This document shows positions 3,616-23,150 of a stretch of 64,000 nt of DNA, piece after piece. The notes under the pieces were generated by a model, which saw only the letters and a list, made by a program, of their open reading frames with translations, ran no database searches and had not been told where the DNA came from. Each line of letters opens with the position of its first letter. The stretch's first letter is position 1. Source of the DNA: an uncultured bacterium (GTDB taxonomy: Bacteria; Hydrothermota; Tepidihabitantia; Tepidihabitantales; Tepidihabitantaceae); contig CAYPNB010000001.1 in assembly GCA_964412225.1 (NCBI GenBank), forward strand, positions 75,656 to 139,655, in the 5' to 3' direction. A program made the translations under genes and the position numbers.

Positions 3616-3702
3616 TAATATAGAAAGGGAAAATTTTCTGTCAAAAGCGACAAAGAAAAACTGGACAGATAACATCAGGGGGGGTATAATTTTGACTTCA
3701 CA

Positions 3703-4137
3703 ATGGCGGATACGCAGGAGTTTCAGCCCAAGATTGTGGCGTTTCTCTGTAACTGGTGTTCTTATGCTGGTGCCGATCTGGCGGGAATTTCAAGAATGCA
3801 GTACCCACCGACAATTCGGGTGATCCGGGTACCCTGTTCGGGCCGGGTGGACCCGTTTTTTATTTTACAGGCGCTCCAGATGGGAGCGGATGGGGTGCTG
3901 GTGTCCGGGTGTCATCCCGGAGACTGTCATTATCTCACTGGTAATTTTGTTGCCCGGCGGCGGTTCGCGGTGCTCAATGACCTGCTGGAGTTCTGTGGGA
4001 TTGAGCCCGGGCGGGTGACCTTTGCCTGGGTGTCGGCAGCAGAGGGCGAGCGGTTTGCCCAGCTGGTGCGGGAGGTGACCGAAAAGGTGCGTCAACTGGG
4101 ACCCAGCCGGAGGCTGGTGAAAAGGGAGCCGGTTTGA
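3703..4137 (+). CDS. mvhD: MvhD/FlxD-like methyl-viologen-reducing hydrogenase delta-subunit homolog
   Basis: 144 aa with conserved cysteines (FLCNWCSYAGADLAG, VPCSGRVD, GCHPGDCHY) diagnostic of the MvhD 2Fe-2S protein. It is the first gene of the hdr/flx cluster. Confidence 0.85.
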   Translation: MADTQEFQPKIVAFLCNWCSYAGADLAGISRMQYPPTIRVIRVPCSGRVDPFFILQALQMGADGVLVSGCHPGDCHYLTGNFVARRRFAVLNDLLEFCGIEPGRVTFAWVSAAEGERFAQLVREVTEKVRQLGPSRRLVKREPV

Positions 4138-4967
4138 GCCAAATTGAGAGGTTGCGGGGGCGGGCAAAAGAGTTGCTTGCCAGCAAAACGGTTGCCTTTG
4201 TGCTTGGTTTTCAGGCCGGGTGCCGTTCTGAAGAAGCCGAGGTGGCTTTTATTACCGAGCCCGCAGAGGCCGGGCGATTGATAGTTGACGGCACCTGTTC
4301 GCTGAACATCGCCAACTTTCTTCTCCGGGTGAAGGGGGCGGGTCGGGGTGCGGTGGTGGCGCGGGGCTGTGAGTCCCGGTCAATTGTGGTTCTCCTCCAG
4401 GAGCGGCAGGTGGTGCGGGAAAACCTCTACATTCTCGGGGTGGGATGTGAAGGGGTGGTGGTAAACGGGGAGAAGTCGGTTGCCTGCGTCAGTTGTCGGT
4501 GTCCTAATCCGGTGATTTACGACGAGATGATTGGTGAGCCGGTGCCGGTTTCGCCGGAGCCGGTGCCGGATGATTTTGAGCGGTTGAGCCCGGATGAGCG
4601 GTGGCAGGTTTTGCAGGAGGATATCCAGAGGTGCATTCGCTGTTACGCCTGCCGGCAGGTATGTCCGAACTGCTACTGTCCGGTCTGTTTTGTTGACAAC
4701 ACCATGCCCCAGGTGGTGGGCAGGACCCATAACCTTTCGGACAATATGGTTTTTCACATCGGTCGGGCGCTGCATATGGCGGGCAGGTGTGTTGAGTGTG
4801 GGGCGTGCCACCGTGCCTGTCCGATGGGGATTGACTTAATGCGTTTCAATCGGCGGGTGGCAAAGACGGTGAAGGAGCGGTTTGGTGCGGTAGCGGGGAT
4901 GGACCTGAAGGAGGCGCCGGCGCTGACCGTTTTTAAACCGGATGACCCCCAGGAGTTTATCTACTGA
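4134..4967 (+). CDS. FlxC-like iron-sulfur protein (FrhB/FdhB-family N-terminus plus 2x[4Fe-4S] ferredoxin)
   Basis: The TTG start overlaps the mvhD stop (TTGA). CIRCYACRQVCPNCYCP and CVECGACHRACPMG ferredoxin motifs. Paralogous to 15018-16148. Confidence 0.7.
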   Translation: MSQIERLRGRAKELLASKTVAFVLGFQAGCRSEEAEVAFITEPAEAGRLIVDGTCSLNIANFLLRVKGAGRGAVVARGCESRSIVVLLQERQVVRENLYILGVGCEGVVVNGEKSVACVSCRCPNPVIYDEMIGEPVPVSPEPVPDDFERLSPDERWQVLQEDIQRCIRCYACRQVCPNCYCPVCFVDNTMPQVVGRTHNLSDNMVFHIGRALHMAGRCVECGACHRACPMGIDLMRFNRRVAKTVKERFGAVAGMDLKEAPALTVFKPDDPQEFIY

Positions 4968-4968
4968 T

Positions 4969-5985
4969 ATGGGTAAACCAAGGCAGGTTAAGAAAGAGGA
5001 ACTCCGGCAGCGGCTTAACTCCTTAGCCGGTGAGGGGAAGTTGTTTGCGCCGGTGCGGGATAAAACGGGTTCGGTCTGGCGCCGGGTGGCAAGTGCTGAA
5101 GAGATCTGTTTGGAGGAGATAAACGTTCGGGAGCCGGCAAAGGTTTTTGTTTTTCCCCGCACTGAGGTGATGATGCGGTTTGATGAAAAAGGGTTACCGG
5201 AGGTGCCGGCAGATGTGCCAGAGCAGGTGGTTTTTGGTTTGCGCCCCTGTGACGGGAGCGCCGGTGCCTTTCTGGAACAGTTTTTTACCGGCGGGGACCG
5301 GGTTGACCCGTATGTGAAACGGCGCCGGGAGCGGACAGTTCTGGTTGGCGTTGCCTGTAATCGCGCCGAGCCTTCCTGTTTCTGTATGGCGGTGGGCGGT
5401 AGTCCCCAGGGAACACGGGGGCTGGATTTACTGCTTACCGATCTGGGCGAATTGTGGGTGGCGGAGCCGGTGACCGCGGCGGGGGAAAAACTGGTGGCGG
5501 AGATGCCCGAAGCGGAGGCGGCGGTGCTGAAAAAGAAAGAGGAGATTCGCCATCAGGTTGAGGCGCAGATGGAGTTTAAGGAGTTGCCCAAAGGGTTGGC
5601 GGAAAAACTGGCGCGGTGTTTTGAGCATCGGGTGTGGGACATTTTGGCGGCGAAGTGTGTAAACTGTGGCGTCTGCACCTTTCTCTGTCCGACCTGTCAC
5701 TGCTTTGATGTTACCGATGAGACGGTACAGGGTAGGACCAGCCGGTGTCGGGTGTGGGACTCCTGTCAGTTTACCCTTTACTCCCAGCACGCCTCTGGGC
5801 ACAACCCGCGGTTTCAGCCGGGGTCCCGGTACCGGAACCGGGTGATGGACAAGTTTAAGTACACGGTAGAACAGGTGGGCGCGATTTCCTGTGTTGGCTG
5901 CGGGCGGTGTATCCGGTTCTGTCCGGCCGGAATTGACATCCGGCAGACGGTGCTGCGGGTGAGTCAGGCGATTGCGGAGGAGTAG
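4969..5985 (+). CDS. FlxB / AsrA / HydB-like 4Fe-4S subunit
   Basis: CFCMAVGG, CVNCGVCTFLCPTCHCFD and CVGCGRCIRFCPAG motifs match the anaerobic sulfite reductase subunit A / sulfhydrogenase beta family. The start was placed at ATG 4969 (MGKPRQ) just after the upstream stop; the longer ORF begins at 4942. Confidence 0.7.
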   Translation: MGKPRQVKKEELRQRLNSLAGEGKLFAPVRDKTGSVWRRVASAEEICLEEINVREPAKVFVFPRTEVMMRFDEKGLPEVPADVPEQVVFGLRPCDGSAGAFLEQFFTGGDRVDPYVKRRRERTVLVGVACNRAEPSCFCMAVGGSPQGTRGLDLLLTDLGELWVAEPVTAAGEKLVAEMPEAEAAVLKKKEEIRHQVEAQMEFKELPKGLAEKLARCFEHRVWDILAAKCVNCGVCTFLCPTCHCFDVTDETVQGRTSRCRVWDSCQFTLYSQHASGHNPRFQPGSRYRNRVMDKFKYTVEQVGAISCVGCGRCIRFCPAGIDIRQTVLRVSQAIAEE

Positions 5986-5988
5986 ACG

Positions 5989-6828
5989 GTGATGAACCCC
6001 TATCTGCCGATTCCGGTGCGGATTGAGCGGGTGACGGTTGAAAACGACGCCCAGGACCTGAAGACATTTGACCTGGCGTTTGTTGAGGAGGCGCTGCGGG
6101 CGAACTGGCGTTTTGTACCGGGGCAGTTTGGTTTTCTGTCAATCGCCGGGGTGGGTGAGGCGCCGTTTGGGATCGCCTCGGCACCCCATGAGCGGCTTTT
6201 GAAGTTTACGGTTAAACGGGTGGGTTCTTTTACCACCGCTCTTCACGAACTGACAGAAGGGGCGGTAATCGGTTTACGGGGGCCGTTTGGCAACTGGTAT
6301 CCGTTTGATTTGATGAAGGGCCGGGATGTGGTGATTGTTTCCGGCGGGTTTTCCTTCACCACTTTGCGGGCGACGATTGCCCATCTGCTTTTGCCGGAGA
6401 ATCGTGGTGATGTTGGGGAAATTACCGTTGTCTATGGCGCCCGTTCACCCGGAGAGCTGCTCTACAAAGAGGAGTTGAAAGTGTGGGAGGGCCGTTCGGA
6501 CATAAAGCTGGTTCTGTGTGTTGACCGGAAGAACGGTGCCGACTGGCCCCGAATTGAGGGGCTGGTACCCAATGTGCTTCAGGATGTGGCGCCGGCAGCG
6601 AACAACGCGGTGGCGTTGGTGTGCGGACCGCCGATAATGCTAAAGTTTACCCATCCGGTCCTGGAGAAACTGGGATTTCTCCCGGAGCGGGTGTTCCTTT
6701 CCCTTGAGAATCGGATGAAGTGTGGCATCGGCAAGTGTGGCCACTGTAACGTAGGACCGAAGTACGTGTGCAAGGACGGGCCGGTTTTCGCCTATGCCGA
6801 ATTGCGCCAGTTGCCCAGGGAGTATTGA
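5989..6828 (+). CDS. FlxA / AsrB / HydG-like FAD- and NAD(P)H-binding 2Fe-2S oxidoreductase
   Basis: FAD/NAD-binding ferredoxin-reductase fold (PGQFGFLSI, VVIVSGGFSFTTLRATIAHL) with a C-terminal CGIGKCGHCNVGPKYVCKDGPVF 2Fe-2S motif, as in the PyrK/AsrB/HydG family. Confidence 0.75.
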   Translation: MMNPYLPIPVRIERVTVENDAQDLKTFDLAFVEEALRANWRFVPGQFGFLSIAGVGEAPFGIASAPHERLLKFTVKRVGSFTTALHELTEGAVIGLRGPFGNWYPFDLMKGRDVVIVSGGFSFTTLRATIAHLLLPENRGDVGEITVVYGARSPGELLYKEELKVWEGRSDIKLVLCVDRKNGADWPRIEGLVPNVLQDVAPAANNAVALVCGPPIMLKFTHPVLEKLGFLPERVFLSLENRMKCGIGKCGHCNVGPKYVCKDGPVFAYAELRQLPREY

Positions 6829-6863
6829 AAAGTGAGTCCGATTTGTTATCATTTGTGTCTTTT

Positions 6864-7253
6864 ATGAGCGGTGCACCAGATAAACTTCTTGCCCAGATTG
6901 AACAGTTAAGCGGTCAGCGGGTTTCTGACTGCTATCAGTGCGGTTGCTGCACCGCCGGGTGTCCGATTGGCGAGTGGATGGACCCGCCACCGAGTAAGGC
7001 GATCCGGATTTTACAATTGGGGCGGGCAGAGGAACTGCTGGCGAGTGAAGGGATATGGCTCTGCGCCAGTTGTCTTGTCTGCGGTACCCGCTGTCCAAGG
7101 AATGTTGATTATGCCCGAATCGCCGAGGCGTGCCGGTTGATTGTTTTGCGCGGCAAGCGCAGTGTGGTTGACCCGGACAGTGTTACCGAATCCGACCTGG
7201 AGGATGTGCCGCAGCAGGCGTTTATTGCCAGTTTCCGGAAGTTTTCGGTATGA
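6864..7253 (+). CDS. hdrC: Heterodisulfide reductase subunit C
   Basis: CYQCGCCTAGCP and CASCLVCGTRCP two-cluster ferredoxin typical of HdrC. The ATG at 6864 follows the flxA-like stop. Confidence 0.8.
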   Translation: MSGAPDKLLAQIEQLSGQRVSDCYQCGCCTAGCPIGEWMDPPPSKAIRILQLGRAEELLASEGIWLCASCLVCGTRCPRNVDYARIAEACRLIVLRGKRSVVDPDSVTESDLEDVPQQAFIASFRKFSV

Positions 7254-8107
7254 GATACCCTTATTATCCCGGATGTACTCTTTATTCCAAGGCCCGGAAT
7301 CTTGACCGGTGTGGGCGCCGGGCGATGGCGACGCTCGGGGTGGAACTGGCAGAGATGTCTTCCTGGAACTGCTGCGGGGCGATTTACAACACCGGCAGCG
7401 ACGACCTGGCCGGCCAGGTCGGTCCAATCCGGAATCTGGCCAAGGCCAGTCAGGAGGGAGAAAAACTGGTTACGCTGTGCGCCGCCTGCCACAACGTGCT
7501 GAAACGGGCACAGGAGCGGTTTTTTGCCCAGGGGAATGAACAGGAGCGACAGCGGCTGATTGATTTTCTTGATGAACCTTTTACCCGGCCGGTGACGGTT
7601 GTTCACTACCTTGAGGTCCTGAAGGAGGATTTAGGCTGGGCGGCGATTAAGGAGCGGGTGCAGCAGCCTTTGGGTTTGAAGGTTGCCTCTTATTACGGTT
7701 GTTTGATGGTCCGGCCCCGGGAGGTTTTGAAGTTTGACGATCCGGATAACCCGCAGGTGATGGACGAACTGATGGGGGTTCTTGGTGCCGAGCCGGTGCG
7801 GTTTGATTTTAAGACCGAGTGTTGTGGTGGTTATCTGGTGGTGAACCGGCGGGCGGTGGCGGTTGAGTGCTCGCGGCGGATTTTAGACAATGCCCGTTCG
7901 TGGGGGGCGGAGGTAATTGTCACCACCTGTCCGTTGTGTCAGTACAACCTGGAAATTGCTCAGCGGGGGCAGGGCCCGGTTATGCCGGTATTTTATTTTA
8001 CCCAGTTATTGGGTCTGGCACTGGGTTTGGCACCGGTTGAACTGGGGTTTGAGGACAATAAACTTGACCCGGTGCCGTTTCTGAAGGAGAAAGGGTTAAT
8101 TAAATGA
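7250..8107 (+). CDS. hdrB: Heterodisulfide reductase subunit B (two CCG domains)
   Basis: ATGA overlap with hdrC. N-terminal YYPGC...NCCG and C-terminal YYGCLMV...CCGG...TTCPLCQYNL Cys-rich CCG domains. Confidence 0.85.
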   Translation: MRYPYYPGCTLYSKARNLDRCGRRAMATLGVELAEMSSWNCCGAIYNTGSDDLAGQVGPIRNLAKASQEGEKLVTLCAACHNVLKRAQERFFAQGNEQERQRLIDFLDEPFTRPVTVVHYLEVLKEDLGWAAIKERVQQPLGLKVASYYGCLMVRPREVLKFDDPDNPQVMDELMGVLGAEPVRFDFKTECCGGYLVVNRRAVAVECSRRILDNARSWGAEVIVTTCPLCQYNLEIAQRGQGPVMPVFYFTQLLGLALGLAPVELGFEDNKLDPVPFLKEKGLIK

Positions 8108-10098
8108 GCGCGGAGAATCCAGTTCTGGTTAACGAAGAGCGGCGGGCGGCGGGCGGTAAGCGGAAACTGGGTGTTTTTATCTGCCACTGCGGAATAAACA
8201 TTGCCGGTGTGGTTAAGGTTCCCGAACTGGTGGAAAGGGTAAAGAAGATTTCCGGGGTGGCGAGCGTTAAGGATTATGTTTACTGCTGTTCCGATCCCGG
8301 GCAGAAGATTATTCGCGATACAATTAAGTCGGAAGGGCTGGAGGGGGTGGTTGTAGCCTGCTGTTCCCCCACTCTCCACGAGGCGACATTCCGGCGGGCA
8401 GCGACTGAGGCGGGGCTGAACCCATATCTCTGTGAAATTGCCAATATTCGGGAGCAGTGCTCCTGGGTTACCGCGGACCGGGACGCGGCAACCGCCAAGG
8501 CAGAGGGCATTATTGCCACCATGCTTGCCAAGGTTGCCCGGGACCAGCCGCTGGAACGGTTGCGGGTTCCGATTGTGAAGCGGTGTCTGGTGGTGGGGGC
8601 GGGGATTGCCGGTATTCAGGCGGCTCTGGATGTGGCAAATGCGGGTTATGAGGTGGTGCTGGTGGAGAAGGAGCCGTCAATTGGCGGGCACATGGCACAA
8701 CTGTCCGAGACTTTCCCGACGCTTGATTGTTCGCAGTGTATTCTGACACCCAGGACGGTTGAGGCGGGTCGCCATCCGAGAATTAAACTTTTGACCTACT
8801 CAGAGGTGGCGGAGGTCAGCGGTTTTGTTGGCAATTTCCGGGTGAAGATAAAACAGAAACCCCGGTACGTTGACATTGACGCCTGCACCGGATGCGGGAT
8901 CTGTCTGGAGAAATGCCCGGTGCGGGTAGCGTCGGGTTTTGACCGGCAGCTGACCAGGCGCCGGGCGATCTACCGGTTGTTTCCCCAGGCGGTGCCGAAT
9001 AAGGTGGTGATTGATGCCGAGAGCTGCCGCCAGTTACAGGGTAAGAAGTGCGGGGTCTGTGCCAAGGTCTGTCCGGCGAATGCGATCCGTTATGATGACC
9101 AGGAGCGTTTTATTGAGGAGGAGGTGGGTGCAATTGTGCTCGCCACCGGTTATGAACTGTTTGACATCAGTCGGGTTGGCGCTTACGGTGCCGGCGTTGT
9201 TCCCGACGTGATTGATGGGCTGGCGTTTGAGCGAATTCTCTCGGCATCAGGTCCTTTTGCCGGTGAGGTGCGGCGGCCCTCGGACGGCAAGGTGCCGAAG
9301 CGGGTGGTGTTTGTTCAGTGCGCGGGTTCTCGGGACAGCAATCAAGGGGTGCCGTACTGTTCCAAGATTTGCTGTATGTATACCGCCAAACACGCGTTGC
9401 TGTACAAGCACCGGGTGCACGACGGCGAGGCGATTGTTTGCTATATTGATGTGCGGACACCGGGGAAGGGGTTTGAGGAGTTTTATCGGCGGGCAACTGA
9501 CGAAGGGGTGCAGTATCTTCGCGGTAAGGTGTCTAAAATTTTCCGCCGGGGGGATCGGGTGGTGGTTTGGGCAGCGGACACCCTGGCGGGCAAAAAACTG
9601 GAGATTGAAGCGGATATGGTGGTGCTGGCGAGTGCGGTTATCCCCAATCCCAGGGGGATAGAACTGGCACGACGGTTAAAAGTCGGCGTTGACGCCAACG
9701 GGTTCCAGTCCGAGGCACATCCGAAACTGCGACCGGTGGAGACGCTTACCGCCGGGTTTTTCCTCGCGGGATGCGGTCAGGGACCAAAGGACATTCCTGA
9801 AACGGTGGCGCAGGCTTCCGGGGCGGCGGCGAAGGTGCTGGCTTTGTTTGGAAATGAAGAGATGGAGCATGAACCGGTAATCGCTCAGGTTGATGAGGAT
9901 GTTTGTGTCGGTTGTGGCAACTGCGAGCGGACCTGTGCCTATGAGGCGGTAAAGGTTGACCCCCGGCGGGGTAAGGCGATAGTGCAAAAGGCGATGTGTG
10001 AAGGGTGCGGGGCGTGTGCGGTTGCCTGTCCTTCCGGGGCGATGAATCTGACCAACTTTACCAAAAAGGCACTTGTTGAAATGGTGGATGTGGATTGA
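8104..10098 (+). CDS. hdrA: Heterodisulfide reductase subunit A (FAD, multiple FeS)
   Basis: 664 aa with an ATGA overlap to hdrB. It has the VFICHCGINIAG thioredoxin-like/MvhD-binding module, a GAGIAGIQAALD FAD motif, an inserted CTGCGICLEKCP ferredoxin, a CAGSRD...YCSKICC stretch, and a C-terminal CVGCGNCERTCAY...CEGCGACAVACP 2x[4Fe-4S]. Confidence 0.9.
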   Translation: MSAENPVLVNEERRAAGGKRKLGVFICHCGINIAGVVKVPELVERVKKISGVASVKDYVYCCSDPGQKIIRDTIKSEGLEGVVVACCSPTLHEATFRRAATEAGLNPYLCEIANIREQCSWVTADRDAATAKAEGIIATMLAKVARDQPLERLRVPIVKRCLVVGAGIAGIQAALDVANAGYEVVLVEKEPSIGGHMAQLSETFPTLDCSQCILTPRTVEAGRHPRIKLLTYSEVAEVSGFVGNFRVKIKQKPRYVDIDACTGCGICLEKCPVRVASGFDRQLTRRRAIYRLFPQAVPNKVVIDAESCRQLQGKKCGVCAKVCPANAIRYDDQERFIEEEVGAIVLATGYELFDISRVGAYGAGVVPDVIDGLAFERILSASGPFAGEVRRPSDGKVPKRVVFVQCAGSRDSNQGVPYCSKICCMYTAKHALLYKHRVHDGEAIVCYIDVRTPGKGFEEFYRRATDEGVQYLRGKVSKIFRRGDRVVVWAADTLAGKKLEIEADMVVLASAVIPNPRGIELARRLKVGVDANGFQSEAHPKLRPVETLTAGFFLAGCGQGPKDIPETVAQASGAAAKVLALFGNEEMEHEPVIAQVDEDVCVGCGNCERTCAYEAVKVDPRRGKAIVQKAMCEGCGACAVACPSGAMNLTNFTKKALVEMVDVD

Positions 10099-13000: not shown

Positions 13001-14576
13001 TTATGCCGAGGAGAACCTTTTCACCTGTTCTCAGGACACCCAGGAGAAAATCCGCCGGGTGATTGTGGAGCAGAAACTCAACCGGGTGGTGGTTGCCTCC
13101 TGTACCCCCCGGACCCATGAGCCGCTTTTCCAGGAGACAATGCGGGAGGCGGGGCTCAACCCCTATCTGTTCACGATGGCGAATATCCGGGACCAGTGTT
13201 CCTGGGTTCATATGCAGTTGCCGAATGAGGCGACCGAAAAGGCAAAGGAGCTGGTACGGATGGCGGTGGCAAATGCCTGTCGGTTAAAACCGCTTTCCTG
13301 TTCGTCCCAACCCATTGTTCAGAAGGCGCTGGTTATCGGCGGTGGGCTTGCTGGTATGACCACCGCACTTGCCATTGCCGACCAGGGTTTTGAGGTGTTC
13401 CTGGTGGAAAAGGCAGCGGAACTGGGCGGAAAGTTGCGTCGGGTCCGATACAATCAGCGGGGTGAACGGATTGATGAGTTTCTGTCCGCTTTGGAACGGC
13501 GGGTTCGTACCCATTCCAACATTAGGGTTTTCACGGGTAGTGAGGTGAGGGCGGTATCGGGTTATGTCGGGAACTATCTGAGCCGGGTGGAAAGGGTTGA
13601 TGGTAGTGATGTTCAGGATATCAAACACGGGGTTTTTGTGGTGGCGGTTGGGGCCGAGGAGTATCGCCCGAAAGATTTCTTCTACGGCGAAGACGAAAGG
13701 GTAATGACCCAGTTGGAACTGGAACAGATACTTACCACTCAGCCCGAACGGTTAGCCGGGGTGAAGAGTGTGGCAATGATTCAGTGCGTTGGTTCCCGGG
13801 ATGCCGAACATCCGTACTGTTCCAGAATCTGCTGTACCGAGGCGATAAAAAATGCCTTGCACCTGAAAAAAGAGAATCCGAAACGGCAGGTTTATGTTTT
13901 CTACCGGGACATTCGCACCTACGGGTTTAAAGAGGCGCTGTATCAGGAGGCAAGACAGGCGGGGGTGATATTTATCCGGTTTGACCCGGATGTGCCGGAG
14001 CGGGCTTTAAGCTGGGAGAGGCGTAATGGTAAACTCCACGTCGCCACATTTGACCCGGTGCTTGGCAGACGGGTAGGGGTGGATGCTGACCTTCTGGTGC
14101 TTTCCGCGGGTGTGGTGCCAACGCCAGCACACCGGGAACTGGCACAGCTGTTAAAGGTGCCATTAAATGAAGACGGTTTCTTCCTTGAGGCGCATATGAA
14201 ACTCCGGCCGGTTGATTTCAATACCGCCGGGGTGTTTATGGCGGGGCTTTGTCACAGCCCCCGGTTGATGGATGAAACGATTGCCCAGGCGTTAGCAGCG
14301 GCGGCTCGTGCCGGTGCGGTGATCAGTCAAACTGAGATTATGACCCAGGCGGTGGTGGCGCGAGTTAACCAGCGCTGGTGCGCGGGTTGCGGGGTATGTG
14401 AAAACGTCTGTCAGTATGAGGCGGTGCATCTAAACCCGGCGACCGGGAAAAGTGAGGTTACCGCGGTGCTCTGCCAGGGGTGCGGTGCCTGTGCCGCTGC
14501 CTGTCCCGCCAGTGCGATTGAACTGCAGGGGTTTGAGTCAAAACAGTTATTGGCAATGATAGAAGCGGCACTATGA
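10095..14576 (+). CDS. HdrL-like giant HdrA-family protein with an inserted GltD-like NAD(P)H oxidoreductase domain and a second HdrA-like FAD domain
   Basis: 1493 aa. An HdrA-type N-terminal FAD half (VVGAGIAGIQASL, CTGCLDCTKVCP) is followed by a GltD-like segment (CPAGVNAQGY...VAVIGAGPAGLTCALDL...VVVIGGGNVAVDCA). Then come the remainder of the HdrA fold (CVGSRSQEHYYCSSVCC), a CNCGINIGG module, a second FAD domain (LVIGGGLAGMTTALA) and a C-terminal 2x[4Fe-4S]. It overlaps the hdrA stop. Confidence 0.85.
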   Translation: MSMAPNQGSNNNNKVGAVLVVGAGIAGIQASLEMAEAGFKVYLVDRSPAIGGVMAMLDKTFPTNDCSMCILAPKLVGTGRHPNIEIINGAELTGLEGEPGNFTVRIRRQPRYVLLDKCTGCLDCTKVCPVAVPDTYNQGLSSRRAVYKLFAQAIPNAVAIDKNEHRAPCRLACPAGVNAQGYVALIRERKFKEGYELVRQRLPFVGVCGRVCHHPCEQQCNRKDVDEPVAIRTLKRFLADWVQENGPLPYPAPAPENGRRVAVIGAGPAGLTCALDLRLKGYSVTVFEAGEAPGGMMRWGIPAYRLPRKVLDEEIKAILDTGVELKLNSPVTSTADLKQLLAGGYQAVFVAVGCSRSRRLEVPGVELAGVLPGIEFLRRVNGGEQGILTGQRVVVIGGGNVAVDCALCARRSGAVEVTMVCLERREEMPAHEWEIAEALAEGVKIMPSWGPKVITGDNGRVTGLETVFCVRVFDESGRFNPQFDQGKTGFVPADAVIIAIGQEVAGDGFDGVERGRLGTFKVDPVTLAVPGMPGIFAGGDGVRGPASVIEAVADGHEAALSIDRFLRGENLATARPEPKPEPARLEESARARSGIGKEARRPEPVLAVEKRQDNFAEINLGFDEETAVSEARRCLDCGVCSECFQCVAACEARAIDHSETPRELNLQVGAVVLAGGFREYKPIDSEWGYRDSPNVVTSLEFERILSATGPYEGHVRRPGDGKQPKKIAWVQCVGSRSQEHYYCSSVCCMFATKEAVIAKEHCAGDLECHVYYMDMRCFGKGFERYYERARDEYGVVFRRCRVAKIVPENGGCENPSGNLVVSYENENGELQEEVYDMVVLSSALTADPDYARLCASIKVDVDEQGFVRTDQFYPVATSRPGVFACGALVEPKDIPETVTEATGCAGAVASLLAEARNTLVKKKEYPPERDVSAEEPRVGVFVCNCGINIGGVVTVPSVVEFARTLPGVVYAEENLFTCSQDTQEKIRRVIVEQKLNRVVVASCTPRTHEPLFQETMREAGLNPYLFTMANIRDQCSWVHMQLPNEATEKAKELVRMAVANACRLKPLSCSSQPIVQKALVIGGGLAGMTTALAIADQGFEVFLVEKAAELGGKLRRVRYNQRGERIDEFLSALERRVRTHSNIRVFTGSEVRAVSGYVGNYLSRVERVDGSDVQDIKHGVFVVAVGAEEYRPKDFFYGEDERVMTQLELEQILTTQPERLAGVKSVAMIQCVGSRDAEHPYCSRICCTEAIKNALHLKKENPKRQVYVFYRDIRTYGFKEALYQEARQAGVIFIRFDPDVPERALSWERRNGKLHVATFDPVLGRRVGVDADLLVLSAGVVPTPAHRELAQLLKVPLNEDGFFLEAHMKLRPVDFNTAGVFMAGLCHSPRLMDETIAQALAAAARAGAVISQTEIMTQAVVARVNQRWCAGCGVCENVCQYEAVHLNPATGKSEVTAVLCQGCGACAAACPASAIELQGFESKQLLAMIEAAL

Positions 14577-14596
14577 GTGGAAAGTGAGGTGTCATT

Positions 14597-15016
14597 ATGA
14601 ACTACGAGCCCCGGATAGTCGGATTTTTATGTAACTGGTGTACCTATGCCGGTGCGGATCTTGCCGGTACTTCCCGAATTCAGTATCCCCCGAATATGCG
14701 GCCAATCAGAGTTATGTGTTCGGGTGCGGTGGACTCGGTTTATATCCTGCGGGCATTGCTGGAGGGGGCGGACGGGGTGTTTATCGGTGGCTGTCATCCG
14801 GGTGATTGTCATTATGTCTCGGGGAATTACAAAACCCGGCGGCGGATGGTGCTGTTCAATGCGATCATGCGGTCGTTGGGACTTGATGACGGACGGGTGT
14901 TGCTGCGCTGGATTTCGGCGGCGGAAGGCAAAAAGTTTGCCGAGACGATAACCACAATGACCGAGGAGCTCCGCCAGAAAGGCCCGAGTCCGTTCCGCAG
15001 TCTCTGGGAGGTGTAG
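14597..15016 (+). CDS. mvhD: MvhD-like protein (second copy)
   Basis: FLCNWCTYAGADLAG, MCSGAVD and GCHPGDCHY motifs, paralogous to 3703-4137. A GAGGTG RBS lies 8 nt upstream. Confidence 0.85.
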   Translation: MNYEPRIVGFLCNWCTYAGADLAGTSRIQYPPNMRPIRVMCSGAVDSVYILRALLEGADGVFIGGCHPGDCHYVSGNYKTRRRMVLFNAIMRSLGLDDGRVLLRWISAAEGKKFAETITTMTEELRQKGPSPFRSLWEV

Positions 15017-15017
15017 G

Positions 15018-16148
15018 GTGGCAAAGATGGGAGTGTTCAAAGTTGACGACCACAATCCGGAACAGACGCTCCGGGATGTTTGCGCTCGCTGGCTCAAAGA
15101 AGAAAAACTTTCGGCGATTTTAGTTCCGGCGGTCTCCCCGCTCGGGGTTGTTGCTCCAGCGCTCGTCACCACACCGGAAGCGGTTAAACGGATCGCCCCT
15201 CTTTGTCCGGCGATGTCGGTAAACGGTGCCAATATTTTAATGGAAATTGCCCAGCATCCGGCGGCACCGGAAACCAGGGTCGGGCTGATGCTCCGACCGT
15301 GCGAACTCCGGGCGGTGGTGGAACTGGTGAAACTGAAACAGATAGCGCTGGACAATTTGATTTTAATCGGCATTGATTGTCCCGGGACTTATAAGGTGTC
15401 AGTATACAATCAGTTAAGCCAGAGTGATCCGGAGTTTAACAGCCGGTTTGTCAAAAGTCAGGGAGGGTATTTAAATGACGAGCGTTTACGGAGCGCCTGC
15501 CAGATGTGTGAGTTTCCCACACCGTTAGTGGCGGACCTGGCGATCGGCTTTTTGGGAATGGATCCAGCAAAGGAGATTTTCTTTGAAGCGGCAACCGCTA
15601 AAGGTGAGACACTTTTAGACGGGTTTGCCTTAGATTCCGTTGGTGAGGTACCGGCGGCGCGCCGGGAGTACCTGGCGGCGTTTCGCCGGGGACGGGAGGA
15701 GAAGGCGGCACAGCTCATCGCCCAGTTTGAACAGGTGGCGCTGGGACCGGAAAATTTATTGCGCTATTTTGCCAACTGCCTCAACTGCCACAACTGTATG
15801 CATGTCTGCCCGGTTTGCTACTGCCGGGAGTGTTTTTTTGAGTCGGAGGCGCTCAAGCGGGAGATGGATGAGACGGTGCGGCTGGCAAGACGCAAGGGTA
15901 TTTCCCGGATGCCCGCGGGGACGATGCTGTTTCATCTGACGAGGATGAATCACATGATGACGTCCTGTGTTCAGTGCGGGATCTGCGAGGAGTCCTGCCC
16001 GGTTCAGATCGGTTTGAGTGTACTCTTCAAGAAGGTATCTCGTGCTGCCCAGGCAGAATTTGCCTATCTATCCGGTCGGTCGCTGGAGGAGCCGCTGCCG
16101 CTGACCACCTTCCGTGAGGATGAGTTCCGGACTGTTGGTGAAGGGTAA
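15018..16148 (+). CDS. FlxC-like / FrhB-FdhB-family iron-sulfur protein (second copy)
   Basis: CLNCHNCMHVCPVCYCREC and CVQCGICEESCP ferredoxin motifs after an FrhB-like N-terminal domain. Paralog of 4134-4967. Confidence 0.7.
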   Translation: MAKMGVFKVDDHNPEQTLRDVCARWLKEEKLSAILVPAVSPLGVVAPALVTTPEAVKRIAPLCPAMSVNGANILMEIAQHPAAPETRVGLMLRPCELRAVVELVKLKQIALDNLILIGIDCPGTYKVSVYNQLSQSDPEFNSRFVKSQGGYLNDERLRSACQMCEFPTPLVADLAIGFLGMDPAKEIFFEAATAKGETLLDGFALDSVGEVPAARREYLAAFRRGREEKAAQLIAQFEQVALGPENLLRYFANCLNCHNCMHVCPVCYCRECFFESEALKREMDETVRLARRKGISRMPAGTMLFHLTRMNHMMTSCVQCGICEESCPVQIGLSVLFKKVSRAAQAEFAYLSGRSLEEPLPLTTFREDEFRTVGEG

Positions 16149-16150
16149 AA

Positions 16151-16828
16151 ATGGAAGAGATTTTACTTAACGAACTGGACGGCGATTTCAAGTATCGGAT
16201 CGCGGAGCGGATGGGTGACGCCAGTTTTCTCAACTGTTTTGCCTGCGGTTCCTGCACCGCTGCCTGCCCGGTGCGCCGTTTAGAGGAGAAATACAATCCC
16301 CGGCGGTTGGTGCGAATGGCAATTCTGGGGATGAAGGAGGAAGTTTACCGGTCGGAGTTTGTCTGGCTCTGTTCTTATCATTCTACCTGTCTTTACCGAT
16401 GCCCGCAGGGCGTTAACATCGGTGAGGTGTGTGCAACGGTGGTGAAGTTGAGTGCCGGTTGTCCGGCGCCCCAAAAGGAGAATGAGGCAAAGGTGGACCC
16501 GGCTTTTCGGCAGGAGGTTTTGAAACGGGTTCCCGGGGTTTCGGCCTGTTTTGTCTGTGGTAGTTGTACCGCCGTCTGTCCGGAGGCGCTGGTGGACACC
16601 GAGAAGGACCCCCGACGGTTTATCCGAAAGGTGAATTTAGGGTTGCGGGAGGCGGCGTTTGCCGATCAGTTCAAGGACGTCTGCGCTACCCATTTTAAGT
16701 GCGAGAGCCGGTGTCCCCAAGGGGTCAAAATCAGCCGGATAATGCAGGTGCTGAAAGAACTGGCGATGGAAGACGGCTATACCTATCCCGAGTCGCTCAA
16801 AATGCTGGAAAGGCGGGCGGATGAGTGA
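16151..16828 (+). CDS. Tandem-duplicated HdrC-like ferredoxin
   Basis: Two consecutive HdrC-like modules (CFACGSCTAACP...CLYRCPQGV and CFVCGSCTAVCP...CESRCPQGV) in 225 aa. No HdrB-like gene follows. Confidence 0.75.
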   Translation: MEEILLNELDGDFKYRIAERMGDASFLNCFACGSCTAACPVRRLEEKYNPRRLVRMAILGMKEEVYRSEFVWLCSYHSTCLYRCPQGVNIGEVCATVVKLSAGCPAPQKENEAKVDPAFRQEVLKRVPGVSACFVCGSCTAVCPEALVDTEKDPRRFIRKVNLGLREAAFADQFKDVCATHFKCESRCPQGVKISRIMQVLKELAMEDGYTYPESLKMLERRADE

Positions 16829-19800: not shown

Positions 19801-19910
19801 TAGATATTAAGGGGTTTGCCAGCGACAATATTGTCCGGGAACTCAACTCCCTTCTTAACCTGCCGTCCGCTGCCAGCGGTGCCGAACGCAAGGCCGCGGT
19901 GGGCGGATAG
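16821..19910 (+). CDS. Double HdrA-like fusion protein (HdrL paralog lacking the GltD insertion)
   Basis: 1029 aa. An N-terminal HdrA FAD domain with a ferredoxin insert (VVGGGVGGVQVAL, CTGCGSCLEKCP, CFGSRDE...YCSSVCC) is followed by a CHCGINIGG module, a second FAD domain (LVIGGGISGMSAALA) and a C-terminal ferredoxin. Long stretches are near-identical in protein sequence to the 12900-14576 part of the 1493-aa gene. Confidence 0.85.
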   Translation: MSEVGSVNAALVVGGGVGGVQVALDLADAGLKVYLVERAPAIGGYMAMLDKTFPTNDCSMCILSPKLVSCARHPNVELLTLSEVLEVTGEPGNFQVRVRRYARSVDIDRCTGCGSCLEKCPVKLPNEFEGGLSQRRAIYRLYAQAVPNAPTIDRKVCLKFTKNRCGNCEKVCKAGAINYAEEDQEMVLNVAAVVLATGSEIVSPRVRQEFGYGRFPNVVTSLEFERILSASGPFGGHIQRPGDRKEPKKIAWLQCFGSRDETVNRGYCSSVCCMYAVKEAVIAKEHSPEVQPTIFYMDLRAFGKDFDRYIERAEKQYGVRLVPARVAEIREIPETKDLVVRYATEKGQRTERFDMVVLSGGFIPPEAVQLLDQRLGVQLNQFSYPLVDVFAPVNTTRAGVFLAGSDQGPKDIPETVTQASAAAAQVLSCSGVPGAVAKKGDGFRNVIGEPPRIGVFVCHCGINIGGVVRVPEVVEFARQLPGVVYAEENLYSCSADSLEKLKSRIVEQKLNRVVVASCSPRTHEPLFQETVAQAGLNPHLFAMTNIRDQCSWVHMQLPDEATEKAKDLVGMAVARVRRQEPLAPVKLPVTKAGLVIGGGISGMSAALALADAGFEVFLVERENELGGMARKIWRTVEGEDVPKRLAGLIERVSTHPRVRVFTGARIARIEGFVGSFTTTVRHNTDRGEEETELRHGVVVLATGARYRQPTEYHYGASPRVKTQQELEEIIARQPEGLDDARLVVMIQCVGSREEERPYCSRICCVEALKNAIAIKERNPQTEVFILYRDIRAYGLKEKFYRRAREMGVNFIRYTPDRKPAVSATKEGVQVRVYEPVIGEELELVPDLLVLSSGVVANPDAAELAQMLKVPLHQDGFFLEAHAKLRPVDFATEGVFLCGLCHYPKFIDEAIASAQAAAGRAVTVLAREFIEGEPYQAVVNPQRCSACRMCETLCAYRAIEVKLIDERQGRFAAVVNAALCKGCGACAANCRSQAIDIKGFASDNIVRELNSLLNLPSAASGAERKAAVGG

Positions 19911-19928: not shown

Positions 19929-20354
19929 ATGTCTTTCCGTTATCAACTGCTTGAGCACACCGCTGACCTGAAGGTGGCGATTTACGGCAAGGACCTACCT
20001 GAACTTTTTGTCAACGCTGCCCAGGCGATTTTTGACATCATGGTGGATCTGAACCGGGTTGAGGAGAAAACCAGCGAAGAGGTTTCGCTTAACTCGGGCA
20101 GTCTGGAGGAACTGTTTCTGGACTGGTTACGGGAATTGCTCTTCCGCTTCGCCACCCGGGGTTTGGTTTGCGCCCGGGTAGAGATGCAGAGTCTGGATCC
20201 GGAAAGGGGAGGTTTAACCGCCCGGCTCTATGGCGAATCCTACCAGATGGAGAAGCACGGTTTGAAGATAGAGATTAAAACCCCAACCTATCATCAATTC
20301 AGTTTGGTCTCAGGCGAGGCTGGTTTTGTCGCTACGGTGGTCTTTGACGTTTAG
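19929..20354 (+). CDS. Archease
   Basis: 141 aa. The N-terminal YQLLEHTADLKVAIYGKDLPELF and the overall length match the archease family, an RtcB activator. Confidence 0.75.
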   Translation: MSFRYQLLEHTADLKVAIYGKDLPELFVNAAQAIFDIMVDLNRVEEKTSEEVSLNSGSLEELFLDWLRELLFRFATRGLVCARVEMQSLDPERGGLTARLYGESYQMEKHGLKIEIKTPTYHQFSLVSGEAGFVATVVFDV

Positions 20355-23048: not shown

Positions 23049-23150
23049 TTAGCCTCCTTTGCCTAACAAATAAATTATATAAGAAAATCGCACACTCGTC
23101 AAACAATAGGCGCGGGGTAATTTTTCCCCAGAGTTTGTTTTGGGGCGGTT

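Follow-up and report, generated by a model that had tools for sequence, protein, structure and literature searches.

A conserved Hdr/Flx-like gene cluster with fused HdrA proteins as a candidate NAD(P)H-linked bifurcating or confurcating system

We analyzed a 64-kb stretch of DNA (hereafter the window) from an uncultured bacterium that probably belongs to the WOR-3 group. In the window, 12 plus-strand open reading frames, two of them encoding giant proteins of 1493 and 1029 aa, fill positions 3703–19910, exactly where a first-pass annotation had put 12 co-oriented genes (Table 1). Based on the sequences of these genes and of their homologs, we propose with moderate confidence that they specify an unusually large, soluble system of the Hdr type, located in the cytoplasm, built on flavins and iron-sulfur clusters, and either bifurcating or confurcating, that would consist of a flx arm and an 8-gene core. 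All parts of the cluster come from known families (publications exist for Flx-Hdr, HdrL, fused HdrA, and Elp proteins), and their combination is undescribed.

Table 1. Features of the cluster and its flanks (positions within the window)
Feature	Position	Strand	Assignment	Evidence
P_flx	3662..3690	+	promoter-like, TGGACA-N17-TATAAT	11/12 consensus matches; ends 12 nt before g1 ATG
g1 flxD	3703..4137	+	MvhD-type [2Fe-2S] connector, 144 aa	PF02662 FlpD, 3.8e-56
g2 flxC	4134..4967	+	shortened FdhB/ElpB-family iron-sulfur adaptor, 277 aa	PDB homology
g3 flxB	4942..5985	+	AsrA/sulfhydrogenase-beta-like iron-sulfur protein	PF17179 Fer4_22, 3.6e-31
g4 flxA	5989..6828	+	AsrB/HydG/PyrK-type, FAD + NAD(P)H site + [2Fe-2S]	Pfam, NCBIfam
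P_hdr	6825..6852	+	internal promoter-like, TTGAAA-N16-(TG)TATCAT	ends 11 nt before hdrC ATG
g5 hdrC	6864..7253	+	HdrC, 129 aa	Fer4_17, Fer4_8; TIGR03290 and QmoC matches
g6 hdrB	7250..8107	+	HdrB	PF02754 CCG x2, 2e-21; TIGR03288, 2.1e-46
g7 hdrA	8104..10098	+	HdrA	NCBIfam HdrA2 model positions 1-638, 779 bits; Cys map, unit alignment
g8 hdrL	10095..14576	+	1493-aa fusion	HdrA parts + GltD/PRK12771 module; PDB matches
NfnB/GltD-like module of HdrL	10572..12044	+	aa 160-650 of HdrL	PRK12771, 1.9e-169, 565 bits, residues 161-670
g9 mvhD	14597..15016	+	second MvhD/ElpC-type [2Fe-2S] connector	PF02662, 2e-52
g10	15018..16148	+	full-length FdhB/ElpB/FrhB-family protein	FrhB_FdhB_C + Fer4; PDB matches
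g11 hdrCC	16151..16828	+	tandem HdrC-like protein	two stretches to TIGR03290, 8.5e-34
g12 hdrAA	16821..19910	+	1029-aa fusion	two HdrA-like units; alignment to 5ODC_A
archease gene	19929..20354	+	archease, not a redox component	PF01951, 5e-39; 18 nt downstream of g12

Gene content, packing, and promoter-like elements

Domain mapping with Pfam and NCBIfam profiles upheld all of the gene identities given in the first-pass annotation. The MvhD/FlpD match of g1, for example, has an E-value of 4e-56, and, as had been stated, some subunits of the cluster are duplicated and some are fused. Chance is ruled out by the E-values of the profile matches together with the fact that other genomes retain the entire arrangement.

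The first four genes make up a flxDCBA module. FlxD (g1) is 58% identical to the second connector, g9, and MvhD of the g1 type adjoins FlxC across genomes. FlxC (g2) is a 4Fe-4S dicluster protein by domain search, with two CX2CX2CX3C motifs followed by CxCxxC; its PDB matches are the FdhB subunits of Hdr-bound formate dehydrogenases (7bkb_E, 9t1s_M, and 8rvu_E, E 5e-20 to 4e-19), and it is 25% identical to g10 (E 6e-22). FlxB (g3), which starts at ATG 4942 or ATG 4969, matches the NCBIfam models ShyB (4.8e-50) and AsrA (5.3e-41). FlxA (g4), the predicted NAD(P)H entry site, contains PF00175 NAD_binding_1 (3.9e-11) and PF10418 DHODB_Fe-S_bind (5.4e-12) domains and matches PRK08345 (1.9e-66) and AsrB (3.6e-53); it is a member of the NfnA superfamily, although its best scores are to the AsrB/HydG type. 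In the hdrCBA genes that follow, HdrC (g5; orthologs of 129–131 aa) has two canonical CX2CX2CX3C motifs, and HdrB (g6) is the sole CCG-domain, and hence predicted disulfide-reducing, subunit of the cluster, with both CCG motifs intact (C9X31CCX34CXXC and C151X39CCX34CXXC).

The genes are tightly packed. Adjacent genes overlap by 4 nt at g1/g2, g5/g6, g6/g7, and g7/g8 and by 8 nt at g11/g12, and the remaining junctions are gaps of 1–35 nt when the likely starts are used (either ATG for g3 and ATG 6864 for g5), so the earlier statement that most junctions overlap was slightly overstated; overlaps are found at 5 of the 11 junctions. The flx and hdr genes are adjacent, and no terminator-like hairpin was found in the intergenic gaps of the cluster. 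However, the cluster is probably not one operon running from promoter to terminator, because a promoter-like element (P_hdr) lies 11 nt ahead of hdrC. The archease gene, the 13th co-oriented gene, is probably cotranscribed with the cluster; it occupies the same position in the homologous loci L001, L087, and L089 and is not found there in L088 or L003 (L-numbers, including L001, L003, and L087–L098, denote homologous loci in other genomes used for synteny).

The block AAAACTGGACAG-N17-TATAAT-N12-ATG, which contains P_flx, is kept in L001 and L087. No Shine-Dalgarno sequence is present between P_flx and the ATG of g1, and because of this and the 12-nt spacing, the g1 leader would be very short or absent. 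A Shine-Dalgarno sequence is also missing between P_hdr and the hdrC ATG. The P_hdr layout is that of the elements before hdrC in L088, L089, and L003, where hdrC opens the cluster; in L001 and L087, the P_hdr position is instead taken by a Shine-Dalgarno sequence. The region contains 7 promoter-like matches, compared with 7.5 expected in shuffled sequence (i.e. no excess), and it is position and conservation that support calling these two elements promoter-like.

Architecture of the fused HdrA proteins and their neighbors

Neither HdrL (g8) nor HdrAA (g12), the "double HdrA" of the first-pass annotation, holds two full HdrA copies; alignments reveal that each is made of two complementary partial units. 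In HdrL, unit 1 (aa 1–165 plus 651–930) contains a Cys pair (C66/C69) and an inserted ferredoxin domain and has neither the N- nor the C-terminal domain, and unit 2 (aa 931–1493) contains the N-domain and a C-terminal 2x[4Fe-4S] domain and has neither the Cys pair nor the inserted ferredoxin domain. PDB matches align aa 18–163 with HdrA 146–291, aa 668–911 with the HdrA-like protein 6tjr, and aa 934–1107 with HdrA 2–175, and no cluster cysteine varies among 11 homologs. Full-length homologs of HdrL (45–53% identity) occur in >600 species, including Desulfobacterota and other phyla.

HdrAA has the plan of HdrL minus the NfnB-like insertion, with unit 1 at aa 1–445 (nt 16821–18155) and unit 2 at aa 446–1029. 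When it is aligned with 5ODC_A, aa 3–342 correspond to HdrA 139–473 (C58/C61 being the equivalents of Cys194/197), aa 449–620 to HdrA 2–173, and aa 830–1009 to HdrA 471–647. The AlphaFold2 model of HdrAA (like that of g10, a single chain without cofactors) has a pTM of 0.82, and its top Foldseek matches are HdrA chains. Unit by unit, HdrAA and HdrL are 50–60% identical; in both, only unit 1 has equivalents of Cys194/197, and the N-domain is in unit 2. The GxGxxG and FAD-proximal C...C...CC cluster motifs are kept in all five HdrA units of the cluster and are invariant in homologs. From these alignments, we conclude that HdrL and HdrAA are paralogs, each predicted to be a pseudo-heterodimer in which a single chain joins two partial HdrA units that complement each other.

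Within the inserted ferredoxin domain of HdrL unit 1 sits the NfnB/GltD-like module, with 2x[4Fe-4S], FAD, and an NAD(P)H site as predicted cofactors. Its PDB matches include 9bov_A (1e-109), 9n5u_A (named "NfnA", 3e-98), and, among Nfn proteins, 4ylf_B (7e-73) and 5jca_L (2.5e-70), and it carries GxGxxG at residue 265 and an invariant GGGNVAxD at 397–404. The domain searches support both points of NAD(P)H entry named in the first-pass annotation, FlxA and the GltD/NfnB-like region of HdrL.

Downstream of hdrL, g9 starts 20 nt after the end of g8, and of the 68 HdrL loci identified in a set of 80 species loci, 48 have mvhD directly after hdrL. The g9-type MvhD is always paired with a g10-like gene, and the MvhD subtype co-varies with the FdhB-like neighbor. 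Over aa 45–361, g10 matches 9t1s_M (2.5e-31), 8rvu_E (4e-26), and 7bkb_E (1.4e-23), and its AlphaFold2 model (pLDDT 80, pTM 0.82) is closest in Foldseek to ElpB 8rvu_E and FdhB 7bkb_E (TM 0.62–0.68), followed by FrhB, Fsr, and HCAR. It has 15 invariant cysteines and probably binds flavin and up to four [4Fe-4S] clusters. Each half of HdrCC (g11) contains one CX2CX2CX3CP and one CX2HX2CX3CPQ motif, and identity is 35% both between the halves and with g5. The histidines of the latter motif, H77 and H181, are unchanged across 21 orthologs, among them those of a Clostridia metagenome-assembled genome (MAG) and an archaeal MAG, and HdrCC probably holds four clusters, two of them with a histidine ligand. 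Of the 80 species loci, 5 have g10-like genes and 2 have HdrCC.

Conserved gene order and the number of enzymes

In relatives, the conserved unit is an 8-gene core, hdrC-hdrB-hdrA-hdrL-mvhD-fdhB/elpB-like(g10)-hdrCC-hdrAA, which is kept in L088–L095, L097, and L098 and has flx attached in L001, L087, L093, L094, and L096. The flxDCBA module lies in front of the core in the window, L001, and L087, behind it in L096, and divergent from it in L003; it is missing from the locus in L088 and L089. In contrast, hdrCBA always accompanies hdrL-mvhD-g10-hdrCC-hdrAA in these relatives. The first-pass annotation's division of the cluster into flx-hdrCBA and a partial second set is only partly borne out.

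Genes g1–g7 supply 7 of 7 subunit types of FlxABCD-HdrABC, the NADH dehydrogenase/heterodisulfide reductase of Desulfovibrio (Nitratidesulfovibrio) vulgaris and Bilophila wadsworthia (PMC12125255), and the gene order inside each module is the same. The "inverted order" reported for flxDCBA-hdrCBA arose from the form of the published name; the Desulfovibrionaceae operon itself reads hdrCBA-flxDCBA (PMC12125255), and only the modules are swapped. Unlike in these bacteria, hdrCBA is joined in the window to five further genes, flx is detachable in relatives, and no DsrC or sulfate-reduction context is visible within 64 kb.

The locus could instead encode two independent enzymes, FlxABCD-HdrABC (g1–g7) and an HdrB-less HdrL-MvhD-g10-HdrCC-HdrAA with another acceptor, which is how the first-pass annotation had itself read it. 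The direct contact of flxDCBA with hdrCBA, comparable with the Desulfovibrionaceae operon, is in keeping with such a pair, as is the fact that the second set repeats an MvhD, an FdhB-like protein, an HdrC-like protein, and HdrA-like units. The Clostridia MAG locus L009 (MvhD-g10-HdrCC-HdrL-MvhD-FlxCBA) has no visible HdrB, but it starts at a contig end, and HdrB could lie upstream. We consider two enzymes unlikely, because hdrCBA stays joined to hdrL...hdrAA in relatives while flx moves or is missing, the internal promoter-like element precedes hdrC and not hdrL, hdrA and hdrL overlap by 4 nt, hdrB is located after hdrAA in L003, and HdrC-HdrB lie immediately ahead of HdrL in many phyla. Synteny argues for an HdrB that would be shared by both modules.

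Proposed electron flow and its alternatives

From the features described above, we infer how the subunits of a system composed of the flx arm and the 8-gene core would assemble, in which direction electrons would flow, and what the substrates would be. The NAD(P)H dehydrogenase arm would carry electrons from FlxA (FAD, [2Fe-2S]) through FlxB and the FdhB-like FlxC to FlxD, the MvhD connector. In HdrL and HdrAA, unit 1 would provide the Cys pair, the flavin, and the inserted ferredoxin domain, and unit 2 the N- and C-terminal "mobile arm" as docking place for an MvhD connector; because the units are complementary, each fusion would hold one complete bifurcation circuit. MvhD (g9) and g10 would form an Elp/Fdh-like donor arm on HdrL; elsewhere, MvhD/ElpC is the link between HdrA and donors of the FdhB/ElpB type, and it delivers electrons to the partner protomer's flavin (PMC12350162, PMC13580544). 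The low-potential exit of HdrL would be wired to its NfnB-like FAD/NAD(P)H module, and those of HdrA and HdrAA would be open to ferredoxin. HdrCC may be an iron-sulfur bridge, most plausibly towards HdrAA, and the high-potential branches would meet via HdrC and HdrCC at the single HdrB, where a disulfide would be reduced. The net reaction would couple oxidation of NADH and/or NADPH to the reduction of ferredoxin and a disulfide, or run in reverse. It counts against this proposal that two MvhD connectors and one HdrB would serve three HdrA-type proteins (five HdrA units) and that the one-circuit model gives no role to the flavin motif and proximal cluster retained in unit 2 of both fusions.

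It is distinctly unlikely that the 8-gene core, with or without Flx, forms one asymmetric megacomplex with cascade bifurcation. In such a complex, MvhD, the ElpB-like protein, and the His-ligated HdrCC would connect two or three HdrA-type bifurcating flavins in series, with the high-potential output of HdrAA feeding the input of HdrL, and NADH, NADPH, ferredoxin, and a disulfide would be joined in one machine. Multistage or "cascade" bifurcation of this kind is undescribed for any Hdr.

The fusions in the proposed flx-plus-core system have published counterparts. As in HdrL of Desulfobacterium autotrophicum and Syntrophobacter fumaroxidans, MvhD comes after a giant fusion of HdrA with GltD, and as in Sfum_0819–0824 of the latter, an FdhB-like iron-sulfur protein and HdrABC are part of the HdrL cluster; S. 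fumaroxidans co-produces HdrABC/HdrL with MvhD and the FdhB-like protein (PMC5947623). The window departs from these two species in having HdrCC and HdrAA as additions, in its gene order, and in a host that does not reduce sulfate. Descriptions exist both of fused HdrA in which Cys197 and the N-domain are complementary and of insertion of NfnB into the ferredoxin domain (Chadwick et al. 2022, PMC9012536). The complementarity in g8 and g12 is that of the fused HdrA of ANME-1 and of Moorella MetFV-HdrABC-MvhD, and the ∼500-aa insertion within the inserted ferredoxin domain of HdrL resembles the ANME-1 NfnB-inserted HdrA. However, the unit order is reversed relative to ANME HdrA3/4 (the Cys-pair unit is first here), both ANME-1 features are combined in one protein (HdrL), and, unlike in Moorella, MetF and MetV domains are absent from the window.

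The g9-g10 pair corresponds to the MvhD/ElpC plus FdhB/ElpB donor arm of methanogen Fdh-Hdr and Elp-Hdr (7BKB, 8RVU), and g1-g2 to a shortened version of it. Unlike in these complexes, no FdhA or ElpA homolog is found in the cluster or window, where HdrCC or FlxAB is present instead, and the host is bacterial with no sign of CoM-S-S-CoB metabolism. A donor such as H2, formate, or a deazaflavin-type hydride carrier, with g10 either oxidizing a diffusible cofactor or docking a catalytic subunit encoded elsewhere, would suit the full-length FdhB/ElpB/FrhB-family character of g10, since ElpB oxidizes F420H2 and FdhB docks FdhA (PMC12350162). Further points in its favor are the mvhADG and hdrABC genes of 34 MAGs in a WOR-3 MAG survey (PMC12542636) and the formate dehydrogenase or [NiFe]-hydrogenase genes at the distant HdrL loci L004–L006. 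We nevertheless regard such a donor as quite improbable. As the first-pass annotation had noted, the cluster has no mvhAG or formate dehydrogenase partner: domain searches found no hydrogenase or formate dehydrogenase in the cluster or in any ORF of the 64-kb window, MvhA/MvhG being absent from every window ORF, unlike in methanogen MvhAGD-HdrABC. No FdhA or F420-related gene was found within 64 kb, and no orthologous 8-gene locus contains a hydrogenase, FdhA, or F420-related gene. In addition, HdrCC always occupies the place beside g10, and the cluster itself encodes two dedicated NAD(P)H sites.

A mainly Nfn/Stn-like transhydrogenase (NADH + reduced ferredoxin + 2 NADP+ <-> NAD+ + oxidized ferredoxin + 2 NADPH), in which FlxA would act as NfnA, the HdrL insertion as NfnB, and HdrB in a minor or regulatory role, is suggested by the PyrK/AsrB/NfnA-type FAD-[2Fe-2S] family of FlxA, by the close relation of the insertion to NfnB/GltD (E 1e-70 to 1e-109), and by HdrL-MvhD-FlxCBA operons with no HdrB nearby in several phyla (L036, L051, L059, and L075), but it is highly improbable, because HdrB with both CCG motifs is intact and kept in every WOR-3 core and the many HdrA-type flavins would be superfluous for plain transhydrogenation. 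Unlike in NfnAB/Stn, FlxA and HdrL are not adjacent and have several iron-sulfur proteins and HdrA flavins between them.

It also counts against the proposed system that the disulfide carrier candidates DsrC, GcvH/LbpA-like protein, and TusA are not encoded within 64 kb. Unlike in sulfur-oxidizing sHdr-LbpA systems, the window contains no lipoate-binding GcvH-like protein, DsrE/TusA, or lipoate ligase. Genes for a GcvH-like protein, DsrE/TusA, and lipoate ligase adjoin the distant HdrL homologs in L004–L006.

Gene content of the cluster

As the first-pass annotation had claimed, g1-g12 are co-oriented on the + strand, and the ORF listing showed that they tile positions 3703-19910. The proposal that these are Hdr/Flx genes also withstood domain searches (Pfam, NCBIfam), in which the cluster genes obtained Hdr/Flx family identities; in a terminator scan, no terminator-like hairpin was found in any gap between cluster genes. 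Five junctions are overlaps of 4 or 8 nt (g1/g2, g5/g6, g6/g7, g7/g8, and g11/g12), and the others, given likely start codons, are gaps of 1-35 nt. The cluster is a real, well-conserved feature, built wholly from known families in an arrangement undescribed so far. Recent horizontal acquisition was considered and rejected, as the cluster (GC content 0.55-0.59) does not stand out from the remaining window in base composition. A thirteenth co-oriented gene, which encodes an archease, lies 18 nt past hdrAA and keeps its place relative to hdrAA in the relatives L001, L087, and L089; despite the presence of this gene, no RtcB ligase gene was seen within the window.

Features of the cluster, of the other window genes, and of compared loci (positions are those of the window unless an L-number names another locus)
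Feature	Position	Strand	Length (aa)	Assignment or content
Promoter-like element before g1	3662-3703			AAAACTGGACAG-N17-TATAAT-N12-ATG
g1 (flxD)		+	144	MvhD/FlpD, E 4e-56 (Pfam/NCBIfam)
g2 (flxC)		+	277	4Fe-4S dicluster protein (Pfam/NCBIfam)
g3 (flxB)		+	347	AsrA/sulfhydrogenase-beta type; Fer4_22, 4e-31
g4 (flxA)		+	279	AsrB/HydG/PyrK type: FAD, NAD site, [2Fe-2S] cluster
Promoter-like element before g5	6825-6866			TTGAAA-N16-TATCAT
g5 (hdrC)		+	161 (129 from likely start)	HdrC-like
g6 (hdrB)		+	285	HdrB, two CCG domains
g7 (hdrA)		+	664	Complete HdrA; HdrA2 model, 779 bits
g8 (hdrL)		+	1493	HdrA parts and GltD-type module (PRK12771, 565 bits, residues 161-670)
g9 (mvhD)		+	139	MvhD/FlpD, E 2e-52
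g10		+	376	FrhB_FdhB_C and Fer4
g11 (hdrCC)	16151-16828	+	225	Two HdrC-like halves
g12 (hdrAA)		+	1029	Two HdrA-like units
Archease gene	19929-20354	+
Type-9-sorted proteins	23973-25661, 38759-39418, 41796-45464, 48275-51037			Large, secreted; C-terminal type-9 secretion sorting domains
Cobalamin riboswitch	27016-27230	+
TonB-dependent receptor gene	27265-29385	+		Plug and beta-barrel
Ferrous iron uptake locus	30623-33570	-		FeoB, double FeoA-domain protein, DtxR-type iron-dependent repressor
Fumarate locus	34911-38716	+		Class I fumarate hydratase alpha and beta, FrdB-like iron-sulfur protein (241 aa), FrdA-like flavoprotein (542 aa), in this order
16S rRNA gene	57892-59426	-		Complete, bacterial, 1493 bits
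L003, NuoE/NuoF-like genes	21187-24449
L083, HdrL analogue	6420-12541			Three genes
L073, NuoF-NfnB fusion	7401-14790
L005, genes before HdrL	6387-9588			Response-regulator-GcvH fusions and HdrB
L006, genes before HdrL	6681-9927			Response-regulator-GcvH fusions and HdrB

The conserved core and the wider use of HdrL

Close WOR-3 relatives were collected by encoding-contig look-up and by a metagenome scan with HdrCC. All twelve genes are kept in L001/L002, L087, and L093/L094 (HdrL ∼71-74% identical where measured). In L088 and L089, the cluster opens with hdrC and the upstream genes are unrelated; an 8-gene core is found in L091, L092, and L095, loci that end at most ∼700 nt ahead of hdrC, with the upstream flank outside them. 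The flxDCBA genes are positioned past hdrAA in L096/L097, and in L003, a complete WOR-3 genome (CP070680.1), they are divergent, hdrB comes after hdrAA, and NuoE/NuoF-like genes follow the relocated hdrB. Depending on the genome, flxDCBA comes after hdrAA, hdrL, or hdrA, a variation that leaves several candidates for the HdrA-type partner of FlxD. Because the core stays while flx shifts or is absent in relatives, the conserved unit is hdrC-hdrB-hdrA-hdrL-mvhD-g10-hdrCC-hdrAA, and flx is an add-on. The earlier division of the cluster into two halves was correct as to the genes and misplaced as to the boundary, since synteny in relatives gives an 8-gene core and a movable flx module. The order of these modules had also been called inverted relative to Flx-Hdr, the genetically characterised NADH dehydrogenase/heterodisulfide reductase; because the published operon reads hdrCBA-flxDCBA (PMC12125255), the modules here are merely swapped.

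Promoter-like hits were not more numerous than in shuffled sequence, and just two elements were retained, each located where a module begins and kept in relatives; they are taken as promoter-like because of position and conservation, not hit count. The element upstream of g1 is kept in L001 and L087. The second lies in the 35-nt flxA-hdrC gap and ends 11 nt ahead of the hdrC ATG; TTGACT/TTGACA-N17-TATCAT/TAAGAT elements, 11-12 nt from the start codon, occur upstream of hdrC in L088, L089, and L003, and in the 12-gene relatives L001 and L087, a Shine-Dalgarno sequence takes the place of such an element before hdrC. In the window, neither flxD nor hdrC has a Shine-Dalgarno sequence, and in both the -10-like hexamer ends 11-12 nt before the ATG. 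This layout at module-first genes is kept in L001, L087, L088, L089, and L003, and the sequence suggests that the flxD and hdrC mRNAs may be leaderless or have a very short leader. The element before hdrC agrees with an hdrC-headed core to which flx was added.

A scan with an HdrL alignment found full-length HdrL at 44-53% identity in at least 600 species genomes of ∼20 bacterial and archaeal phyla. We surveyed, by ORF calling and BLASTP, 80 tied loci among the matches listed (44-53% identity), a set from which close WOR-3 relatives are absent. HdrL was called in 68 of the 80 and is directly followed by MvhD in 48; HdrB lies within the locus in 29, FlxA and FlxB are present in 17, HdrAA in 16, a g10-like gene in 5, and HdrCC in 2. 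The pairings that recur are HdrL-MvhD-FlxCBA, HdrAA-MvhD-FlxCBA, and HdrC-HdrB-HdrL, and distant HdrL loci adjoin formate dehydrogenase, [NiFe]-hydrogenase, or GcvH-HdrC fusions with DsrE/TusA. Because of these varied partners, HdrL is a widely reused module, elaborated in a lineage-specific way in the WOR-3 core.

In two of the distant loci, on Cloacimonadota-like contigs (L005 and L006), response-regulator-GcvH fusions and HdrB precede HdrL; one response-regulator-GcvH protein is also fused to HdrC, and DsrE and TusA are nearby in L005. This gene content suggests that a lipoyl or persulfide carrier may be the "heterodisulfide" at these loci.

Fused HdrA proteins, tandem HdrC, and donor arms

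HdrL was first defined in D. autotrophicum (PMC2702500), and an HdrABC/FeS/MvhD/HdrL cluster of S. fumaroxidans is co-produced under sulfate-reducing conditions (PMC5947623); no purified HdrL-containing complex was apparent in the literature searched. Alignment to M. thermolithotrophicus HdrA (5ODC_A) and to g7 showed that HdrL and HdrAA have one common plan of two partial HdrA units. Unit 1 begins at the FAD Rossmann fold, without the N-terminal cluster domain; it contains the FPTNDCSxC Cys pair (C66/C69 in g8 and C58/C61 in g12, the equivalent of Cys194/197) and the inserted ferredoxin domain, and its C-terminal ferredoxin domain is missing. Unit 2 contains what unit 1 lacks at its ends, an N-terminal cluster domain and a C-terminal 2x[4Fe-4S] domain, and has neither Cys pair nor inserted ferredoxin domain. 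Within the inserted ferredoxin domain of HdrL sits an NfnB/GltD-like module of ∼490 aa, whose top PDB relatives are GltD/NfnB-type modules (E 1e-70 to 1e-109). Because the unit plan is shared and the proteins are 50-60% identical when compared unit by unit, HdrL is HdrAA with an inserted NfnB/GltD-like module. All five HdrA units in the cluster carry GxGxxG and the FAD-proximal C...C...CC motif, and the cluster cysteines are invariant among 11 HdrL homologs and 24 HdrAA homologs.

Both the fusion of HdrAs with complementary Cys197/N-domain and the insertion of NfnB in the HdrA ferredoxin domain have already been described in ANME-1 and Moorella (PMC9012536); HdrL and HdrAA are alike in the first respect and HdrL in the second, whereas the unit order of ANME HdrA3/4 is opposite to theirs. 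Recent structures place MvhD on the N/C-terminal "mobile arm" of one HdrA, from where it supplies the flavin of the other protomer; the Cys pair is located between them (PMC12350162, PMC13580544). By analogy, unit 2 would be the arm and unit 1 the bifurcating half, so that each fusion would hold one complete circuit, a scheme that assigns no role to the unit 2 flavin. The AlphaFold2 model of HdrAA (pTM 0.82) matches HdrA chains. Single-chain models of HdrAA and g10 confirm the folds; because Foldseek compares single chains only, they are no proof of a pseudo-dimer.

The archaeal MAG locus L083 was examined as a bearer of the 8-gene core and ruled out by Pfam, because three genes stand in for its "HdrL": the first joins the N-part of an HdrA unit 1 to a NuoE-like domain, the second encodes a NuoF-like protein, and the third an HdrAA-like remainder. 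L083 is an analogue with another NADH module at the same insertion site, not an HdrL ortholog. In L083 and in L073, which contains a NuoF-NfnB fusion, NuoE/NuoF-like modules encoded as separate genes replace or join the NfnB-like module.

Each half of HdrCC (g11) contains one canonical CX2CX2CX3CP motif and one CX2HX2CX3CPQ motif, and H77 and H181 are conserved without exception in 21 orthologs, those of a Clostridia MAG and an archaeal MAG (39-45% identity) among them. The obvious reading of these motifs would be that each half binds either a [4Fe-4S] cluster with a His ligand or a 3Fe cluster; no prior description of an HdrCC protein was found in the literature searched. In HdrB, both CCG motifs are intact.

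Sequence search against solved structures identified both g10 and g2 as homologs of FdhB, the beta subunit of Hdr-bound F420-type formate dehydrogenases, of which ElpB is a paralog. The g10 match is nearly full length (residues 45-361 to 7bkb_E, 8rvu_E, and 9t1s_M; E 1e-23 to 2.5e-31), that of g2 covers the C-terminal half (E 4e-19 to 5e-20), and g10 and g2 share 25% identity (E 6e-22). When the AlphaFold2 model of g10 (pLDDT 80, pTM 0.82) was searched with Foldseek, the best matches were ElpB (8rvu_E) and FdhB (7bkb_E) at TM 0.62-0.68, followed by FrhB, Fsr, and HCAR, all FAD/[4Fe-4S] proteins; 15 cysteines of g10 are invariant among 25 homologs. Because ElpB/FdhB (FAD and four [4Fe-4S]) feeds ElpC/MvhD and then HdrA in the solved Elp-Hdr and Fdh-Hdr complexes (PMC12350162), g1+g2 and g9+g10 are, by analogy, copies of this structurally characterised connector and adaptor donor arm. 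In the genomes compared, each MvhD subtype tracks its downstream neighbour, g1-type with FlxC and g9-type with g10-like genes, which supports cognate pairing of MvhD subtype and adaptor. The architecture is instructive in its complementary fused HdrAs, two Elp-like arms, and His-motif tandem HdrC; mechanistic novelty is possible but unproven.

Proposed electron flow and the host

Flavin-based electron bifurcation of the Hdr type has a central place in low-energy anaerobic metabolism, and to our knowledge almost none of the many HdrA-containing clusters of non-methanogens has a known reaction. Here, one conserved unit combines a canonical HdrABC, an NADH arm, an NADPH module, an Elp-like arm, and two single-chain, putatively pseudo-heterodimeric HdrAs. 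With so many modules in one conserved unit, the cluster offers a compact system in which to ask how HdrA modules combine, what role asymmetric fused HdrAs have, and which compound is the "heterodisulfide" in bacteria without methanogenesis or sulfate reduction.

We infer a mechanism in which FlxA and the NfnB-like module of HdrL would be the entry sites of NAD(P)H, perhaps joined by a flavin in g10; the less likely rival at this step is an electron donor encoded elsewhere. From NAD(P)H, electrons would pass through the two MvhD connectors to HdrA-type flavins. The inserted ferredoxin domains would be the exit for low-potential electrons, which HdrA and HdrAA would deliver to ferredoxin and HdrL would exchange with NADP(H) via its NfnB-like module; in a less likely reading, the system would be a transhydrogenase. 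In the bifurcating scheme, HdrC and HdrCC would carry high-potential electrons to the single HdrB, a candidate reductase of a disulfide. Gene order suggests that g9-g10-HdrCC may be an Elp-like arm on HdrL, with HdrCC as the bridge to HdrAA, and the competing, less likely explanation is that two independent enzymes share one locus.

A survey of WOR-3 mentions only mvhADG-hdrABC and CoM-S-S-CoB reduction (PMC12542636). None of the window ORFs, small ones included, encodes DsrC, GcvH/LbpA, TusA, MetF, hydrogenase, or formate dehydrogenase, and the lack of a hydrogenase or formate dehydrogenase partner noted in the first-pass annotation thus extends across 64 kb; because of these absences, the published description misfits the locus. 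The cluster also bears on the published metabolic reconstruction of WOR-3, in which these genes are filed under that heading.

The closest relatives of HdrL (65-78% identity), HdrAA (60-77%), and g10 (55-72%) are nearly all labelled "candidate division WOR-3 bacterium," and because of these closest protein neighbours the host is probably a member of WOR-3. The window contains a 16S rRNA gene and no adjoining 23S rRNA gene; because protein-coding genes flank the former, the rRNA genes may be unlinked. Several large secreted proteins with type-9 sorting domains contain Kelch, beta-propeller, or BNR repeats, and they are consistent with a host of the Fibrobacterota-Chlorobiota-Bacteroidota (FCB) group.

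Directly 5' of the TonB-dependent receptor gene lies a cobalamin riboswitch, and the receptor is presumably a BtuB-like B12 importer. No membrane anchor for the FrdA/FrdB-like pair was found within the fumarate locus; the pair may form a soluble fumarate reductase, which could serve the same organism as an electron sink. The ferrous iron uptake locus is in keeping with the organism's heavy investment in iron-sulfur proteins.
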